A stretch of DNA of 64,000 nt from Candidatus Multivoradales bacterium. Its GTDB lineage: Bacteria > Acidobacteriota > Thermoanaerobaculia > Multivoradales > Multivoraceae. The notes below the pieces were generated by a model. That model was given only the letters and a program-made list of their open reading frames with translations. It was not told the DNA's origin and made no database searches. Numbering within the stretch: position 1 is the first letter of the stretch; the number at the start of each line of letters is the position of its first letter. This document shows, piece after piece, positions 33,746-41,126 of this stretch. Location: the NCBI GenBank assembly GCA_965223325.1, contig CBDCWI010000001.1, positions 928,001 through 992,000 of the forward strand, written 5' to 3'. Position numbers and translations under genes: made by a program.

Positions 33746-35128
33746 TCAGGTGGTCTCCCAGCGCCGGGCGAGACAACGCGCGACCGCCATCAAGGTGGCG
33801 CCGATCAAACACATCATGGCGACCTCGGGGGCGATCGAGCGCAGAATGTCGAGCACCCCGGCACCCGGAGCGTCGTACCAGAAGACGTCGAGGAAGCCGT
33901 CGAGCGCCCAGCCGTTGAAGGTGAAGCGAGAGAGCGGCTCGAGAAACGACGGCATGATGTAGCGCGGCACCATGCTGCCGCCGAGCGCCGACATGATGAG
34001 AATCAAAATGGTGGCCATGCCGTTGAGCTGGGCCCGGGTCTTCGCCAGGGCAGCGAGCATCAAGGCGAAGGCAGACGCTGCGCCCGCGGTCACCACAGCC
34101 ATCACCAGGCAACCCACGAAATGGGGTGCGGTAAACAGGTCAACGTCAAAGACCAACGCTCCCCAAACGAACATCAAGAGCACCTGCAAGATCCCGATCG
34201 CCGTGAACCACGCCCAGTAGGCGCCGAGCAGCGTGCCCATCGTGGCGCTCGACGACAACAGGCGCTCGAGAGTCCCGAGCTCGGCCTCGTCTAAGAGGCC
34301 GCTGGCTGCACCGGTGATCGAGAACAGAAGGAACATCACGCCAAAACCGGCGGCGTAGTAGCTCGCCATCGACGGCTGCTTTTCGTCGTCGTCGGCGTGC
34401 GCCGCGGTTGAGGTGACGTCGACGAGACCGGCCATCGCACCGGCGGTGCCTCCCGCATCAAGAGCGCCCTGGCCCTGGAGCATCGGCTGAGCAGCTTCGA
34501 ACGCCGCCTTCTGTTCGTCGGTCAAACCGCCTCCGAACGTGTCGAGAAACTCCATTCCCGTCTCCATCAACCGGCTCGGCGCCGCCTGCATCACGGCTGC
34601 CTGCACCAGTCCCCCGATGGTGTGTTGCGCCATCGGGTTCGAGGCGTCATAGATGACCTCGAACTGCGGTGGTGTTCCTGCCAACGCACCGAGTTGATCG
34701 GCGAAACCCGGCGGAATGAGGAGGGCTGCCGCAATGTCGCCAGAGCGCACGGCGAGGAAGGCCGCATCCCGACGTTCCGTTTCGCCGAGCGTTGTTGCTC
34801 CATCGGGCAGTTCGGGGTCCTCTCGGACGGCGAGGGCCTCATTGCCCGCCAGTGATGCCACCAGAGCGCGACTTGCGCCACTGTTGTCGAGATCGACAAT
34901 GCGGAGCTCGATCGGGCGCAGCGTTGCGCCGCCACCGCCGCCACTGCGGGCACCGAAGATGGTCGCGAAGATCGAGAAGAACACCATCGGCAGAACGAAC
35001 GCCAGGAAGAGCGCCGTCTTGTCGCGACGCAAAGTCCTCCAGAGAACCCACAGCAGCGTCGGAATACCCCGCACGGTTCGGACGAAGCCAGTGGGAGGCG
35101 GTGAGGTGTTGGACACAGAAGCGCTCAA
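33746..35128 (-). CDS. ABC-2 type exporter permease
   Basis: N-terminal TM, large periplasmic loop, GTLERLL, SALGGSMVP. Start uncertain. Confidence 0.85.
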   Translation of the reverse strand: MSASVSNTSPPPTGFVRTVRGIPTLLWVLWRTLRRDKTALFLAFVLPMVFFSIFATIFGARSGGGGGATLRPIELRIVDLDNSGASRALVASLAGNEALAVREDPELPDGATTLGETERRDAAFLAVRSGDIAAALLIPPGFADQLGALAGTPPQFEVIYDASNPMAQHTIGGLVQAAVMQAAPSRLMETGMEFLDTFGGGLTDEQKAAFEAAQPMLQGQGALDAGGTAGAMAGLVDVTSTAAHADDDEKQPSMASYYAAGFGVMFLLFSITGAASGLLDEAELGTLERLLSSSATMGTLLGAYWAWFTAIGILQVLLMFVWGALVFDVDLFTAPHFVGCLVMAVVTAGAASAFALMLAALAKTRAQLNGMATILILIMSALGGSMVPRYIMPSFLEPLSRFTFNGWALDGFLDVFWYDAPGAGVLDILRSIAPEVAMMCLIGATLMAVARCLARRWETT

Positions 35129-35132
35129 TCGC

Positions 35133-36131
35133 CTACTCCCGCAACTCATGGCCGGTGAGGTGAAGAAAGACGTCCTGGAGAGTCGGAGCTTCGACTTCCA
35201 GGTCGGTGACGAGGACGCCGGCGCGGCGCAGTTCTTCGAGTCGCCTGGGTAGCTCTCGGGCGAGGTCCTCGAGGCGAAACTCGAGAGCGTCGGGCGGCCG
35301 CGGTGTAAAGGCCGAAAGCTCTGCGGCGGCCTCCGTGTTCGTCGCCCTGACGGTCACCAGGCGGCCCGAACCGATCGTCCGGTCGACGAGCTCATCGAAA
35401 CGTCCGCTGGCAACCGTTCGGCCGTGGTCGACGATCGTGATGCGCTCGCAGACCTGCTGTGCCTCGTCGAGCTGATGGGTTGTCAAGAGTAGCGACGCTC
35501 CACCGCGCTGCAACTCGGCGAGCATCTCCCAGATGCGTTCGCGGCTGTGCGGATCGACCCCGACGGTCGGCTCGTCGAGCAGCAGGATCGACGGCTCATG
35601 CAACGTGGCACAGGCGAGATTGAGGCGTCGCTTCATGCCACCCGAGAACCCTTCCACGAGGTCGTTCCGGCGGTCCTCCAGGTTTGTCCACGAGAGCGCT
35701 TCGGCGACCCGACGCGCCAGGTCACCGTCGGCGACCCCCTGCAGAGCTCCCCAGGCCGCGAGATTCTCCGCCGCCGTCAGCCGGGGATAGAGCGCCACCT
35801 CCTGCGGCACGATGCCGAGCGTGTCGCGAAGCACCAGGGAGGCGGGCGAGCGGGCGACGGTGCGGCCGTGAATTGTGATCGAACCGGAGTCGAGTTCAAC
35901 GCGCCCCGCCAGGGCACGAATCAAGGTGGTCTTGCCAGCTCCGTTGGGCCCGAGTAAGCCCAACCACTCGCCGCGAGCGAGGGACACGTCGACACCCGCC
36001 AGAGCCTGGGTGTCACCGAAGCGCTTGTGGGCGCCGCGAACTTCGAGCACCGTCTCGATTCCTGAGGCGGTCGGTGAGGCGGCGCTCTCCGAACGGCGCT
36101 CGTCGGCGGGCTGGGAGATGGAATCGTTCAC
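35133..36131 (-). CDS. ABC-2 type exporter ATP-binding protein
   Basis: GPNGAGKT, FSGGMKRR, LLDEPTVGVDP, LQDVFLHLTG. Confidence 0.92.
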   Translation of the reverse strand: MNDSISQPADERRSESAASPTASGIETVLEVRGAHKRFGDTQALAGVDVSLARGEWLGLLGPNGAGKTTLIRALAGRVELDSGSITIHGRTVARSPASLVLRDTLGIVPQEVALYPRLTAAENLAAWGALQGVADGDLARRVAEALSWTNLEDRRNDLVEGFSGGMKRRLNLACATLHEPSILLLDEPTVGVDPHSRERIWEMLAELQRGGASLLLTTHQLDEAQQVCERITIVDHGRTVASGRFDELVDRTIGSGRLVTVRATNTEAAAELSAFTPRPPDALEFRLEDLARELPRRLEELRRAGVLVTDLEVEAPTLQDVFLHLTGHELRE

Positions 36132-36240
36132 GGCGATCAGAGAGTACGCCAGCAGTCGGTCAGGGTGTTGTTCACAAGTCCTCCGCGGTTTCTATGCGCC
36201 GATCTCAACCGACCGACCGGTTGGACTTTGGCTCCCTCTC

Positions 36241-36269
36241 TTGACGCTCCCTACGCTTCGTCCTAACCT
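36241..36269 (+). promoter_or_regulatory. Sigma70-type promoter
   Basis: TTGACG-N17-TAACCT, close to the TTGACA-N17-TATAAT consensus. Confidence 0.55.
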
Positions 36270-36275
36270 TCTGTT

Positions 36276-36910
36276 CAGTTCGACGCGCGCTGCCCTTCTG
36301 GGTCCTGAGGCCCGCTCACCAAGGAGCCGGGCCCGAATGCGGGCCCAACGATGGAGAGCAGCTCAGCCGTTAGAGGAGGCACCCATGAGTCCGCCGGACC
36401 ACCGTCAGCCCTCGGAAACCGGGTACGGTGACCTGACCGAGGGCCCAGAAAATCACCGGGCGAACGATCGAAGAGCCTGACGAGCCCGCGAAACATTCGC
36501 AACGACGGGCCGACCGTCCGTCGCGTGACCTCCAACCAAAGAGGTCGGGCCAGCTCGCCACCCTGCGGAACTCGTTGGAACGGGGACCGTCACTGACACG
36601 ACGAGCGTCGAGAGAGTCCCGCAACTCTCAGAGACCCCTGCTCTGACCCGCCTCTCCCATCGGTAGCACTGGCCTCGAAAGTTTACCGCCCCGGCGCGTC
36701 GCGCCTCCCGCCAGATCGCCGTGTCTCGACCACGACCCTCGGCCCTGGCAGCCAGGCAGCAGACCCCGGATGCGAGAACTCGAACGCGACGTACGAGCCG
36801 TTCCGCAAGTGCGACCCCATCGGTCTCTTGACCAAGAGCGGTGCACTCGCCGCCAAACGATCCACGCAGACGTTCAAAGAGCGCAGCGGACCACCGCTGC
36901 GCTCTTTCTC
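36276..36910 (+). ncRNA. Candidate large structured RNA or small-ORF transcript of unknown class
   Basis: Lies between a promoter and a terminator, has no credible long ORF and carries many hairpins (see findings). Confidence 0.35.
36385..36480 (+). CDS. Candidate 31-aa small ORF
   Basis: AGAGGAGG at 36372-36379, 5 nt before the ATG; MSPPDHRQPSETGYGDLTEGPENHRANDRRA. Confidence 0.35.
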   Translation: MSPPDHRQPSETGYGDLTEGPENHRANDRRA

Positions 36911-36912
36911 TT
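36876..36912. terminator. Probably bidirectional intrinsic terminator
   Basis: AAAGAGCGCAGCGG-ACCA-CCGCTGCGCTCTTT perfect inverted repeat with tail TTTCTCTT on + and TTTG on -; about 90 nt after the glnK stop. Confidence 0.75.
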
Positions 36913-36998
36913 CGTCGACCGCGAGCGCCCGGCAACGGCCCGGCAATCGACAGGCAATTGCCCGGGAAACGACTGGGGTGAATCTCTGATTCCTCGGG

Positions 36999-37340
36999 TC
37001 AGCCGATGGCGACGGGACCTCGCTCGCCGGTGCGAATGCGGACGACCTCGCCGAGGTCGAGCACGAAGAGCTTGCCGTCACCAATCTTGCCGGTCTGGGC
37101 TCCCCCGGACACGGCGCTGATGACCTTTTCAACGAACTCGTCGTTGACTGCGATCTCGATCTTCGCCTTGCGCAGGAGTCGACCGCCTTCTTTGTGGCTG
37201 CGGTAGACCTCGGACACGCCCTTCTGGCGCCCGCGGCCCATGACGGGCGTCACGGTACACAGATGCACCTCCGCTTCATCGAGTTTGTCGAGCACTTCGT
37301 CGAGCCGATCCGGCTGAACGATCGCAATGATGTACTTCAC
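36999..37340 (-). CDS. glnK: P-II nitrogen regulatory protein
   Basis: GRGRQKG, KAKIEI, TGKIGDGKLFV, VRIRTGE; directly downstream of amtB. Confidence 0.93.
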   Translation of the reverse strand: MKYIIAIVQPDRLDEVLDKLDEAEVHLCTVTPVMGRGRQKGVSEVYRSHKEGGRLLRKAKIEIAVNDEFVEKVISAVSGGAQTGKIGDGKLFVLDLGEVVRIRTGERGPVAIG

Positions 37341-37379: not shown

Positions 37380-38747
37380 CTAGTCGACGAGGGTGTAGGC
37401 GGTTTCGCGATGCGACGCCAGGTCGAGACCGAGGCGCTCTTCATCGTCTGAGACCCGCAGCCCCACCACCAGGTCGATGACCTTGAGAAGCAGGAAGGAC
37501 GCCAGAGAAGCGTAGACGAGGGTGTAGAGAACTGCCTTCATCTGAATGAGGAGCTGACCGGGGTTGCCGAAGAAGAGACCGTTGATGTCGTTGCCAGGAA
37601 CGGCACTCGTTGCCCACAGTCCGGCGGCGAGGGCGCCCCAAATGCCGGCGACCCCGTGCACGCCGAAGACGTCGAGTGAGTCGTCGTAGCCAAACCGTGG
37701 TTTGAGCACCGTCACAGCTGGCCAGGCGATCACCGACGCGAAACCGCCAACACCAAGCGCCCCGAGGGCATTGACCGAACCACAAGCGGGTGTGATCGCA
37801 ACCAGACCGGCAACCGCACCCGTGATCGCACCGAGAAGCGTTGGCTTCTTCTCGCGCAGCCAGTCGAGTATCGCCCAGCCCAGCGCACCCGCAGCCGCCG
37901 CGACATGCGTCACCACCAGAGCGTTGGCGGCGCTGGCGTTGGCGCCCAGAGCGCTGCCGGCGTTGAAGCCAAACCATCCGAACCACAACAGGCCGGTCCC
38001 CAGAACTGCAAACGGCAGGTTGTGCGGCGGCGACATGCCGTCGGGGTAGTCGCGCCTGCGACCGAGCACCAGCGCCGCCACCAGGGCCGAGACCCCGGCG
38101 TTGATGTGCACGACCGTTCCGCCCGCGAAGTCGAGAGCGTTGTCGGCGCCAAGGCCGAAAAAGCCTTCGGCTCCACCCCACACCCAGTGACACACCGGAG
38201 CGTAGACCAGCAGCAGCCAGAGTCCACTGAACCAACACAAAGCGCTGAACTTGATGCGTTCGGCAAAGGCACCCACCATGAGCGCCGGAGTAATGACTGC
38301 GAACATACCCTGAAAGATCATGAACAGCTGGCCCGGAATCGTCGTCCCATCCCAGGCATCGAAACCGACGCCGCGCAGAAAGAAGTAGTCGCCACCACCG
38401 ATGAAGCCGCCGAGGCGGTCGGAGCCGAAGGCCAGGCTGAAGCCAAACAAGATCCACAGGACGGTCATCAGCCCCATGCACAGAAAGCACTGCATGAGTA
38501 TCGACAAGATGTTCTTGCGGCGCACCAGGCCACCGTAGAAGAACGCCAGGCCGGGCGTCATGAGAAGAACCATCGCGCTGGCCATCAGGACCCAGGCGGT
38601 GTCGCCAGTGTCGATTCCTCCCTGCTCGGAGGCGAGGAGCGGTGGCGTGGCGGCAACGGCCCCGATGAGAAAGGTCGAGAAGACCGCCGCTGGAAAACGA
38701 AGTAGGAGCCAGCGCGGCCTGTGCTGCGGCGGAGAACTGGGGGTCAT
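37380..38747 (-). CDS. amtB: Ammonium transporter
   Basis: MTPGLAFFYGG, DFAGGTVVH, WFGWFGFNAGS, DDSLDVFGVHG (both pore histidines present). Confidence 0.96.
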   Translation of the reverse strand: MTPSSPPQHRPRWLLLRFPAAVFSTFLIGAVAATPPLLASEQGGIDTGDTAWVLMASAMVLLMTPGLAFFYGGLVRRKNILSILMQCFLCMGLMTVLWILFGFSLAFGSDRLGGFIGGGDYFFLRGVGFDAWDGTTIPGQLFMIFQGMFAVITPALMVGAFAERIKFSALCWFSGLWLLLVYAPVCHWVWGGAEGFFGLGADNALDFAGGTVVHINAGVSALVAALVLGRRRDYPDGMSPPHNLPFAVLGTGLLWFGWFGFNAGSALGANASAANALVVTHVAAAAGALGWAILDWLREKKPTLLGAITGAVAGLVAITPACGSVNALGALGVGGFASVIAWPAVTVLKPRFGYDDSLDVFGVHGVAGIWGALAAGLWATSAVPGNDINGLFFGNPGQLLIQMKAVLYTLVYASLASFLLLKVIDLVVGLRVSDDEERLGLDLASHRETAYTLVD

Positions 38748-38912: not shown

Positions 38913-39020
38913 CCGCCAGGATCCGCCGAGGCGTCGTGGGGCTCGACATCTTCGTCACTCCGCGCCTCTCGGTCGACAAGACTGTCGCTTCAGAAGGGCG
39001 CTATAGTCGATGTGTCATCT

Positions 39021-39251
39021 AACGGGAACGGTTCGCGATTTCGTCGCGTGAAAAGGGAAACCGGTGTGAATCCGGTGCGGCCCCCGCCACTGTGACCAGG
39101 GACGACCCCGCTCGTGAGCGCGCTCGACATCGTTTCGTCGAGCGGCGCTCGACCACTGAGGCCATTGATACCCATCCAGAAGGTGTCTCGGGCCCTGGGA
39201 AGGTTCTGCGACGGTCGGTTGATCTGGACAGTCAGGAGACCTGCCATTCCT
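39021..39251 (+). promoter_or_regulatory. Cobalamin riboswitch
   Basis: AAAAGGGAAACCGGTGTGAATCCGGTGCGGCCCCCGCCACTGTGA, CCACTG...GGGAAG and the B12 box AGTCAGGAGACCTGCC; upstream of a TonB-dependent receptor. Confidence 0.95.
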
Positions 39252-39275
39252 CGAGCTTGAAACGGGAGGTTTCGA

Positions 39276-41126
39276 ATGCCACAGGTCTACAGGGCGCTTC
39301 TGTCTGCCCTCATCCTCTTCGCTCTTGGTTCTTCGGGCCATGCACAGGTAGAGGGCGAACCGCTCGACATCTCTGAACGCATCACCGTCACGGCGACCGG
39401 CGACGACGCTATCGCGGATCACGTGCCCGTCGCGGTAACGGTCATCCCCCGCGATGAAATCGACAACGCCCAGGAAGAGTCGGTCGCAGATCTCATCCGA
39501 CGGGTCCCCGGCGTCACCGTCATGCGAAGTGGTGATGAAGGCGCGGCCGCTTCCTTCTTCCTTCGTGGCACCGAGTCGGACCACGTCCTGGCACTGTTCG
39601 ACGGCGTGCGGCTCAACTCGCCGTACTTCGGCGGCTACGACTGGTCCCTGCACTCGACCGCCGGGGCAGAGCGCATTGAAGTGGTGCGCGGCCCGTTCTC
39701 AGCACTCTGGGGAGCAGACGCGGCTGGCGGTGCGGTGAACGTGATTCCAGTGCGCGGCTCCCGGGAAAGCAGCCTGGCACTCCACGGCGCCGCCGGTGAG
39801 GGCGATTGGCGGAGGATCGAGGCGCGAGTGGGCTGGACGGATGAAAGCTGGGACCTCGCGGCATCGGGCTTCGACCGAGAGGGCCGAAGCGACGCGCCAA
39901 ATAGCGACTTCAGCAACCGGCAATTGCTCTTTCACGGCGGCTACGCCTGGAACGACGGCAACCGTGCCGCCTTCGTCTACCAGGACCTCGACGGCGCTCT
40001 CGGAGTCCCCTTCTCCGACCCAGTGACTCCGTCGCCCCGCCGGCGACAGGAAACGAGCGAGCGGCTGGCGGCTCTACCGCTGCACTTCGCACCCGCGGCG
40101 CGCTGGAACCTGGAGCTCGTGCCGTCGTTCGTCGAGCGCGAACTGTTCTTCAGCGACCCCGACGACACCTTCGGCTTCACCCGCAGCACGACCCTTGCGG
40201 ATACCGAATCGGCACGCCTTGTCAGTCGGCACGAGCTGCCCAGCGCCGGCGGTGCACACCAGATCAGTTGGGGTGCCGAGTGGCGCCGCGACGAGGTCTT
40301 CGCGCGCTCGAACTTCGGCGTCGATCTGAAGGGCAGCCGCTCCACCATCTCAGGCCTTTTCATGCAGGACCAGTGGCAACCGTCGACTCGTTGGACCCTC
40401 CTCGCCGGCGCGCGCTACGACGACGCCAGCGAGTTCGGTTCGCAGTTCTCTCCGCGGGTGGCGCTGGGCTACCAGGCGACCGACCGGGTCACGCTGCGCG
40501 CCAGTTACGGCCGCGCTTTCCGGCAACCCTCGATTGGTGAGCTCTTCTTCCCTGGCTCGGGCAATCCACAACTCTCGGCCGAGCACTCCGAGTCGGCCGA
40601 AGTCGGCATGACCTGGAGAACCGGCAAGGCGCGGCTGGAGCTGGCGGTCTTCAGAAGCGAAACCGACGACATGATCAACTTCGAGTTCACCTCCTTCTCG
40701 TTCGCCAACATCGATTCCGCCGAGGTGAGTGGGGCCGAGCTGAGTTGGAGTCTTCCGATCACGAAAGACGTCTCTTCGACTCTCGGCGCCACCTGGCTCG
40801 ACAGTGAAGACCAGAACGGACAGCCCCTCTTGCGGCGTCCCGAATGGGGCGCCTCCTGGACTCTCAGAGGGCGGTTCGGCAGCCGCGTGCGGGCTGACCT
40901 GTCGGCGATCTTCGTTGGCTCACGCGACGACGTCGACGCGCTCACCTTCGGCCGCGTTCGGTCACCCAGTCATACGGCCGCGAACGTCGCCATCGCCTAC
41001 CGTCTCGGCGGCGCCTTCGCGCTCACCGCGCGCGCCACCAACCTCCTCGATCGCGGCTACCAGGAGGTCAACGGGTTCCCTGCTCCCGGTCGTCGACTGA
41101 TCGGAGGAATTCGGTGGTCGGGGTGA
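39276..41126 (+). CDS. btuB: TonB-dependent receptor, probable cobalamin transporter
   Basis: Plug motifs (FLRGTESDHVLALFDG, ERIEVVRGPFSALWG), beta-barrel, NLLDRGY; controlled by the riboswitch. Confidence 0.88.
   Translation: MPQVYRALLSALILFALGSSGHAQVEGEPLDISERITVTATGDDAIADHVPVAVTVIPRDEIDNAQEESVADLIRRVPGVTVMRSGDEGAAASFFLRGTESDHVLALFDGVRLNSPYFGGYDWSLHSTAGAERIEVVRGPFSALWGADAAGGAVNVIPVRGSRESSLALHGAAGEGDWRRIEARVGWTDESWDLAASGFDREGRSDAPNSDFSNRQLLFHGGYAWNDGNRAAFVYQDLDGALGVPFSDPVTPSPRRRQETSERLAALPLHFAPAARWNLELVPSFVERELFFSDPDDTFGFTRSTTLADTESARLVSRHELPSAGGAHQISWGAEWRRDEVFARSNFGVDLKGSRSTISGLFMQDQWQPSTRWTLLAGARYDDASEFGSQFSPRVALGYQATDRVTLRASYGRAFRQPSIGELFFPGSGNPQLSAEHSESAEVGMTWRTGKARLELAVFRSETDDMINFEFTSFSFANIDSAEVSGAELSWSLPITKDVSSTLGATWLDSEDQNGQPLLRRPEWGASWTLRGRFGSRVRADLSAIFVGSRDDVDALTFGRVRSPSHTAANVAIAYRLGGAFALTARATNLLDRGYQEVNGFPAPGRRLIGGIRWSG

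Follow-up and report, generated by a model that had tools for sequence, protein, structure and literature searches.

A conserved small gene combining a Pro-Pro-Asp/Gly reading frame with structured RNA in Multivoradales: a possible translation-gated riboregulator

Here, we examined a 64,000-nucleotide (nt) stretch of the Candidatus Multivoradales bacterium genome (GenBank assembly GCA_965223325.1, contig CBDCWI010000001.1, positions 928,001 to 992,000; hereafter the window, whose own numbering is used throughout) and, within it, the gap between glnK and an ABC transporter operon. It is very likely that this gap holds a conserved, single-copy, free-standing small gene on the plus strand, composed of a promoter, a ribosome-binding site (RBS), a short open reading frame (ORF), structured RNA and an intrinsic terminator. 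The gene family is clearly defined, with one copy per genome, occurrence in five families of one order and covariation in three modules, and it is absent from the RNA and protein libraries that were searched (Rfam, Pfam and NCBIfam). For annotation, this means that the 'empty' gap downstream of glnK would be a gene. A conserved gene whose RNA is gated by its own translation is the best explanation that we have of the locus as a whole; we consider it quite possible, if short of probable.

The features of the unit are as follows:

36211-36226, no strand assigned: near-palindrome GACCGACCGGTTGGAC, a candidate operator recognized by sequence comparison with relatives
36241-36269, plus strand: promoter-like TTGACG-N17-TAACCT read from the sequence (-35 box 36241-36246, -10 box 36264-36269), with a predicted transcription start
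36329-36346, plus strand: hairpin GGGCCCG-AATG-CGGGCCC in the 5' leader, from a single-sequence fold; genome-specific and without comparative support
36373-36379, plus strand: RBS GAGGAGG, 5 nt before the ATG
36385-36480, plus strand: short ORF of 31 codons plus stop, MSPPDHRQPSETGYGDLTEGPENHRANDRRA, with the core P-P-D-H at 36391-36402 and the stop codon at 36478-36480
36408-36444, plus strand: helix P1, in which GCCCUCGG (36408-36415) pairs with CCGAGGGC (36437-36444) around a 21-nt loop; supported by covariation
36481-36821, plus strand: genome-specific expansion with predicted stems (junction 36481-36557, 36571-36605 and 36612-36629)
36822-36833, plus strand: small hairpin GGUC-UCUU-GACC, supported by covariation in relatives, 42 nt before the terminator stem
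36876-36915, plus strand: terminator hairpin of 14 bp (inverted repeat 36876-36889/36894-36907) with the loop ACCA, followed by CUCUUCGU

A preliminary description, made from the letters of the window, had presented this region as a candidate novel large structured noncoding RNA or dual-function RNA. A plus-strand unit outside Rfam with covarying structure is indeed there and the dual-function option came close, but the conserved core turned out to be the short ORF. That all three plus-strand frames stop is true of the region; what had been missed was the 31-codon ORF with its strong RBS.

Identification and distribution of the gene family

When the gap was compared with 61 related genomes by DNA BLAST, no homologue was detected, the additional matches being confined to a dispersed repeat at 36918-36998. 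Homologues were first recognized by eye, by comparison with the gap of a genome of the same genus (AmtB 79% identical), in which glnK is followed by a gap of 678 bp. On the strand opposite to glnK, that gap contains, in order, TTGACA-N16-TAGATT, GGAGG-N4-ATG, a 38-codon frame starting with MSPPDH and a hairpin that shares its stem core with the window's terminator. A degenerate pattern (RBS, ATG and xPPDH) matched 5 of 57 family genomes, one of the five matches lacking the other features, and a reversed-pattern control matched none.

A 48-position sequence-only model of the start region (R1), built from four copies, gave exactly one match of at least 21.5 bits in 48 of the 57 family genomes, with the next best matches at 18.5 bits or less. 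Across the order, R1 matched 40 of 151 genomes belonging to five families (E ≤ 0.005; the window's genome counted). With the window's genome excluded, these were 18 of 21 genomes in its own family and 3 of 22, 3 of 21, 9 of 21 and 6 of 10 in the four others, and none of the 55 genomes from seven other families of the order was matched. We also used a second model (R2), which adds helix P1 to the R1 region; since MAFFT alignment of whole units or of the 5' module put the 3' arms of P1 out of alignment, R2 was built from 15 of 22 sequences and the rest were aligned by Infernal. In a sample of the phylum R2 matched 6 of 151 genomes, five of them foreign. Two further real members were found, and three foreign matches were rejected as false positives, being located in what looks like coding sequence and lacking the features of the ORF. 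The matching loci belong to Thermoanaerobaculia, Candidatus Multivorans or Acidobacteriota, mostly as metagenome-assembled genomes.

Units of the same build were also observed outside the order, with a TTGAC promoter, GGAGG, ATG, xPPG/DH, a stop codon in a UAGCG context, structured RNA and a terminator. Two other Acidobacteriota lineages have them, as do Alphaproteobacteria of the Reyranella/Rhodospirillales and Hyphomicrobiales kinds, and in three of these four groups a hairpin directly follows the motif. The two Acidobacteriota loci (L078 and L127; R2 scores of 31-38 bits) encode 10 residues and have a P1-like helix at offset 11. The four Hyphomicrobiales-type loci (L104, L109, L121 and L128) encode 19 residues and show covariation in a hairpin located 13 nt past the Gly codon, with R2 scores of 26-28 bits for L109 and L121 and of 16-18 bits for L104 and L128. 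Scores of 16-18 bits were also obtained for the eight Reyranella/Rhodospirillales-type loci (L072, L125, L091 and five more), which encode a 20-residue peptide, and for a variant, L110. Given these units, the design may be widespread and old.

A short ORF with a conserved Pro-Pro-Asp/Gly motif

The ORF with its RBS and ATG is the best-conserved part of the unit. In all of the 52 aligned members, to which the counts below refer, the start codon is in frame with Pro-Pro (51 ATG and 1 TTG). One codon separates the two in 47 members, two codons in four and none in one. The distance from the end of a GGAGG-type core to the start codon is 1-10 nt in all 52 and 4-5 nt in 44 of them. Pro-Pro is preceded by Thr or Ser and followed by Gly (29) or Asp (23), with no other residue at this position, and then by His (41), Gln (10) or Pro (1), which gives a shared start of M-x(0-2)-P-P-[D/G]-[H/Q]. 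At the nucleotide level, variation within CCN-CCN-GRC-CAN is confined to positions 3, 6, 8 and 12, and the Ser codon of MSPPDH is AGT in the window and TCG in the same-genus genome, differing in all three bases. The in-frame start in all members, the changes of length by whole codons and the restriction of variation to these four positions indicate, at the level of sequence comparison, that the ORF is read as codons.

For the first Pro, 28 members use CCA and 24 use CCG, with neither CCC nor CCU in any of them; in long ORFs of the window's genome, CCA makes up 12% of all Pro codons and 22% of the first codons of Pro-Pro pairs. According to one study of E. coli, CCA tunes the strength of pausing and CCC/U-C is selected against (PMC8129111). 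Stalling at a diprolyl is described as occurring when Trp, Asp, Asn or Gly comes next (PMC4176338). All 52 members have such a site, so classed as an XPPZ site dependent on elongation factor P (EF-P), and the stall itself is predicted. As in leader-peptide attenuators, a short ORF with stall-prone codons follows the promoter: all 52 members have the RBS, the ATG and a Pro-Pro-Asp/Gly that falls among their first 5-7 codons.

A 10-mer, CGGACCACCG, is found twice in the window, once over the Pro-Asp-His codons (36395-36404) and once at the tip of the terminator hairpin (36887-36896). It is absent from the relatives' terminators that were inspected, and we treated the repeat as probably due to chance.

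Conserved RNA structure

Collecting homologues and looking for covariation, a check named in the preliminary description, bore out RNA structure at two places of the window, helix P1, where six of eight pairs have changed on both sides, and the small hairpin, where four of five have. P1 begins 11 nt past the first base of the Asp codon in the window and 10-11 nt past the Asp/Gly codon in the members. In an Infernal alignment of the 52 members, 98.1% of 412 cells are paired and the double changes occur in 29 cells; none of 500 shuffles reached the observed values, and pairing fell to 38-76% when the partner was slid. This alignment was fitted to the model, and an independent check is provided by the 3' arm of P1, which lies outside R1. 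At least 8 contiguous base pairs at the fixed offset were found in 50 of 58 distinct members, compared with 114 of 1160 mononucleotide shuffles of the downstream sequence. About ten G-U cells of P1 would be C-A mismatches if read on the opposite strand. In four genomes of one family, a single additional base precedes P1; the peptide frame over the helix is altered by it and the helix is retained, implying that it is the RNA rather than the peptide that is conserved at that place.

For the small hairpin, 98.5% of 65 cells are paired among 13 lineage representatives, a percentage biased upward because the 19 hairpins were chosen by eye and the six with 5-nt loops, which MAFFT put out of register, were dropped. 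In one large genus (L037-L062), an RNAalifold fold of 24 sequences has 75 pairs, of which 98.0% are paired and 13 changed on both sides; again 0 of 500 shuffles reached the observed values, and slid partners gave 32-45%. In this genus, a long-range helix with double changes in 5 of its 8 pairs closes the RNA body, and the ORF runs through P1 and has its stop codon within the 5' strand of the closing helix. All of these shuffle counts overstate significance, the members being kin and not independent.

The closely packed stems listed in the preliminary description are all present in the sequence and in its minimum-energy fold, but only 36408-36415/36437-36444, that is P1, has comparative support. 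The pairing that had been proposed between CTCTT and AAGAG at 36825-36838 gives way to the conserved one at 36822-36825/36830-36833. The stems at 36329-36346, 36481-36557, 36571-36605 and 36612-36629 lie in sequence without counterpart in the relatives: neither the expansion (36481-36821) nor the long 5' leader has an equivalent in the relatives compared, or a copy elsewhere in the genome, and the stems in them are thus predictions from one sequence.

A possible mechanism and the points against it

We tentatively propose, as a possibility and not as the expected outcome, that the unit is a translation-gated riboregulator, in which a pause at Pro-Pro-Asp/Gly sets the folding of the RNA body. 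The ORF would be translated, yet its peptide would not be the product that matters, only M-x(0-2)-P-P-[D/G]-[H/Q] being kept, and the diprolyl followed by Asp or Gly would act as an EF-P-dependent pause site. From the geometry of the ribosome footprint, a ribosome with Pro-Pro in its P site would have P1 at the mRNA entrance; in a paused ribosome, P1 would begin 7-8 nt after the A-site codon. Because the reading frame crosses P1 and, in the large genus, extends into the closing helix, ribosomes passing Pro-Pro-Asp/Gly must unfold the RNA, and ribosomes pausing there would leave it folded. The folded body would then be the active form, acting in trans, and the unit would report the capacity for proline elongation, that is EF-P activity, the supply of prolyl-tRNA or the general status of translation. 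That it represents a new class of free-standing riboregulator, with its own mini-ORF as the sensor and with pausing set by EF-P activity or prolyl-tRNA supply, is an unlikely extension of this proposal. If the proline-pause idea were true, the unit would serve as a natural, self-contained reporter of the capacity to translate polyproline and as a compact system for studying the competition between ribosomes and RNA folds.

Several known systems share parts of this layout. SgrS/SgrT, RNAIII/hld and SR1/SR1P are dual-function small RNAs, whose peptides are conserved over their full length and have an activity of their own and whose RNAs pair with known targets. The present unit is likewise short and free-standing, with a predicted promoter and terminator of its own, a putatively translated mini-ORF and conserved RNA structure, and a transcription unit of its own is suggested by the promoter motif, found in 41 of 52 members, and by terminator hairpins in the relatives. 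Unlike in these RNAs, only 4-6 N-terminal residues are kept and the ORF lies inside the structured body. With MgtL and SecM, proline-containing regulatory leader or arrest peptides (PMC12856214), and with EF-P-dependent XPPZ stalling (PMC4176338), it shares a very short ORF whose conserved feature is a handful of stall-prone codons. Again as in these systems, the helices are placed so that ribosome position would decide folding, with a terminator downstream. The known examples are 5' leaders of a defined gene, whereas here there is no fixed downstream gene and often a convergent neighbour; the RNA body is also much larger than in attenuators. Like transfer-messenger RNA (tmRNA), the unit is a single-copy, structured, stable-looking RNA containing a short reading frame. 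Unlike tmRNA, it has no tRNA-like domain according to ARAGORN (9 loci), its frame opens with an RBS and AUG, and a normal tmRNA is encoded elsewhere in the genome.

A number of observations weigh against the proposed mechanism. Transcription and translation of the unit are predicted from its sequence, and the rules of stalling derive from E. coli. Moreover, Thr and Ser rank among the weak contexts for XPPP (PMC4176338), so that the Thr or Ser preceding Pro-Pro argues against a strong stall. In 52 of 52 members the Asp/Gly codon ends in C, which may reflect an RNA-level constraint or ascertainment by the models, and not coding. The members were gathered with models built on the motif, which makes the frame and motif counts partly circular. 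Outside the large genus, a duplex test for the closing helix between the regions after P1 and before the terminator gave z values from +0.71 to -3.76; with +0.71, no such helix emerged in the window's own copy, and no alternative (switch) pairing was seen. In this G+C-rich RNA, the test does not discriminate. R1 did not find the unit in 9 of the 57 family genomes, and this absence implies that the gene is dispensable. Eight of the nine were also empty with R2 and one gave a weak match; three of the eight are single-contig genomes that are 97% complete.

The large genus also keeps a peptide length of 29-33 residues and a C-terminal PGAA[EK]S, which counts against the proposal as well and in favor of its main rival, a plain small-protein gene in which the 31-residue peptide is functional and the helices only stabilize the mRNA or tune its translation. 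A strong RBS and an in-frame start in 52 of 52 members are what such a gene would have, and 2 of 10 peptides checked in a collection of 15 billion proteins are predicted by gene callers, both as unnamed entries. Yet the C-terminal stretch of the large genus coincides with the 3' arm of P1 and the closing helix, and the 1-nt insertion in four genomes alters the peptide over P1 with the helix kept. Across families the ORF ranges from 10 to 46 codons without similarity past about residue 11. In addition, conservation of the RNA reaches 150-450 nt past the stop codon and includes a covarying hairpin, and no Pfam or NCBIfam family matches the peptides. We regard a plain small-protein gene as a minority explanation with a real but small chance of being right.

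Promoter, terminator and coding strand

The preliminary description had reported TTGACG-N17-TAACCT on the plus strand; it is present at 36241-36269 and fits the TTGAC-N16-18-TAnnnT form that lies 5' of the start codon in the relatives. A simple consensus scan called no promoter-like site over this promoter of the window. The distance from the -35 box to the ATG is 144 nt in the window versus usually 55-75 nt in relatives, and an alternative -10 box, TACGCT at 36254-36259, preserves the family's spacing from the palindrome. In the large genus, this palindrome is a perfect 16-bp GTCCGACCGGTCGGAC about 75 nt before the ATG, ending 2 nt before the -35 box; a similar one is found in one other genus, and the window has a displaced version that ends 14 nt before the -35 box, 12 nt further away. 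A palindrome of the form CCRACCGGTYGG was found upstream of the -35 box in 25 of 52 members, every one from the window's own family, in a scan of 170 nt that left the window's copy (36213-36224) just outside and thus out of the count. From its sequence and position, GTCCGACCGGTCGGAC is likely to be the binding site of a regulator.

At the other end of the unit, the 14-bp inverted repeat described earlier was found as stated, with 100% complementarity. Because the T-run is short, a simple terminator scan called no site at the window's hairpin, which may also end glnK transcripts arriving from the opposite side. Its stem core AGCGCAG/CUGCGCU (CAGCGCU in one) is found not only in the window but also in three other genera of the family and in the large genus. 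In several other families, this position on the ORF strand is taken by unrelated hairpins, whose U-runs are clearer. The terminator script missed 13 of 30 representatives, in which terminators were read by eye.

Folding of 36276-36912 was compared with 20 dinucleotide shuffles for each strand, giving z -4.92 on the plus strand and -3.05 on the minus strand. With the terminator removed (36276-36870), z was -2.47 on the plus strand, where 3 of 100 shuffles folded as well, and -1.28 on the minus strand, where 11 of 100 did. These values indicate a modest excess of structure that slightly favors the plus strand. The folding check suggested in the preliminary description thus came out better than shuffles, but only modestly once the terminator is set aside.

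Such values bear on whether the gap could instead serve the minus strand, as the 3' untranslated region or terminator of amtB-glnK together with the leader of the ABC operon, or be a neutral spacer or a decayed gene with chance stems at 65% G+C, the G+C content of the window. The minus strand carries all four of the genes around the gap, and the hairpin at 36876-36907 is 92 nt past the glnK stop codon and can fold on either strand. The minus strand beats shuffles when the hairpin is included, yet without it reaches only the z of -1.28 given above. On the other hand, the promoter, RBS, ATG, codon periodicity, G-U pairs and T-rich tails are all on the plus strand, and the unit recurs beside unrelated genes. 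Five relatives lack a close orthologue of the ABC operon (45% identity at best), and the unit is nonetheless conserved.

With regard to a decayed gene, no long ORF with the codon bias of the genome exists in 36132-36998. A weak coding-like codon bias was observed at 36660-36810 within a plus-strand frame open from 36597 to 36989 (log-likelihood score of 7-11 per 120 nt versus 12-30 in real genes), and this signal would be consistent with decay; the frame lacks a start codon ahead of 36828 and extends across the terminator. No protein family was found in any frame of the gap: a search of 12 gap frames against Pfam gave two matches at E about 0.2, that is noise, and the plus-strand frame (36597-36986) gave only noise against 61 genomes. 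The sole phmmer match of this frame among 1.84 billion proteins was rejected, being a translated 55-residue tandem repeat of which the same 26-32 residues matched four times. A word-index search with a 181-residue minus-strand frame found nothing among proteins of 99-317 residues. We consider a minus-strand or neutral origin of the gap very improbable.

Genomic neighborhood

The four genes that flank the gap are:

33746-35149, minus strand: ABC-2 permease (Pfam)
35133-36131, minus strand: ABC-2-type ATPase gene (ABC_tran by Pfam), whose start borders the gap
36999-37340, minus strand: glnK, encoding a P-II protein (Pfam), whose stop borders the gap
37380-38747, minus strand: amtB, beyond glnK

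The gap itself (36132-36998) is 867 bp long and, as the preliminary description had claimed with a figure of about 870 bp, is the largest of the window, the runner-up in codon-score gene calling being 727 bp.

The neighbors of the unit differ by lineage and include glnK, msrA, a Mg-chelatase/ComM-like gene, peroxiredoxin, acyl-CoA dehydrogenase, ribosome recycling factor and asparaginase genes, and this variation implies a free-standing gene. The earlier view of a unit converging on amtB-glnK is correct for the window and for the same-genus genome, the only two to share a convergent glnK, but the arrangement is incidental, as neighbors differ elsewhere.

Neighborhood also speaks to the possibility that the unit is a cis-acting leader, such as a leader-peptide attenuator, of a gene past the terminator, with this gene lost at the window. 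Its layout is attenuator-like, in that stall-prone codons sit in a short ORF, helices overlap and an intrinsic terminator follows, and same-strand downstream neighbors occur in some lineages (a Mg-chelatase/ComM-like gene, glyoxalase and phosphotransferase). At the five large-genus loci inspected (L037, L038, L049, L052 and L059), a Mg-chelatase/ComM-like ATPase gene with a GTG start lies on the same strand, 50-130 nt past the terminator; its identity was confirmed by Pfam at two of the five. In contrast, both the window and the same-genus genome have a glnK that points toward the unit, in the window with amtB likewise on the opposite strand, and an opposite-strand gene also lies downstream at the msrA, peroxiredoxin, acyl-CoA dehydrogenase, AMP-binding enzyme and asparaginase loci. 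Furthermore, the stall site and the terminator are 150-450 nt apart and no antiterminator pairing was identified. A cis-acting leader therefore appears to be a rather improbable explanation, and we retain that of a free-standing gene with translation-gated RNA.

Comparison with known RNA families

At the gathering score, no Rfam family is reached in the region, in line with the expectation of the preliminary description; the only hit of Rfam 15 over the whole window is a cobalamin riboswitch at 39012-39262. Searched to E 10, the region gave seven matches, all below gathering, and 14 homologous or similar loci gave none at E ≤ 0.1. The best sub-threshold match is ncS54, an orphan Rfam small RNA, at 23.2 bits versus a gathering score of 43, and it covers only the terminator hairpin and the run-up to it. 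The preliminary description had seen no tmRNA, RNase P, SRP or 6S RNA here, and neither Rfam nor ARAGORN finds one; these RNAs (178, 277, 64 and 81 bits, respectively) are all on the larger contig of the genome. Judged by titles and the beginnings of abstracts, no open-access paper found in our literature search describes this RNA, and a search on Thermoanaerobaculia gave only unrelated open-access papers. We know of no small-RNA work on this class.

The window copy as an outlier and other features of the locus

The copy in the window is unusually long. The preliminary estimate of about 630 nt is close to the measured length of about 640 nt, but this size is peculiar to the present genome, the whole unit being about 230-330 nt in relatives. 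From the ATG to the end of the terminator, the window has 522 nt versus about 191-297 nt in relatives in which the terminator was placed by script, and the small hairpin begins 437 nt after the ATG versus 84-216 nt. The extra body sequence of about 300 nt is unconserved. A pairing of 36507-36518 with 36734-36745 (83% complementary) would enclose most of the expansion and resembles the inner helix of the large genus, which we mention as a lead and not as a finding.

Contigs from four sequencing runs containing this DNA were all identical, with 0 variants, and none of the listed runs with this DNA is recorded as RNA. The genome is in two contigs (2.14 and 4.55 Mb); that of the window is the smaller one, which may be a second replicon. 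The end of the gap, at about 36913-36998 beside the glnK stop codon, belongs to a loose dispersed repeat family with units such as CCCGGGCAA and GGGAAACG, terminating in GAATCTCTGATTCCTCGGG, of which about ten partial copies are spread over both contigs. Further along the window, the cobalamin riboswitch mentioned above (plus strand, 88.8 bits) is located immediately 5' of a 616-residue ORF (39276-41126), which, by reading of its sequence, resembles a TonB-dependent receptor.

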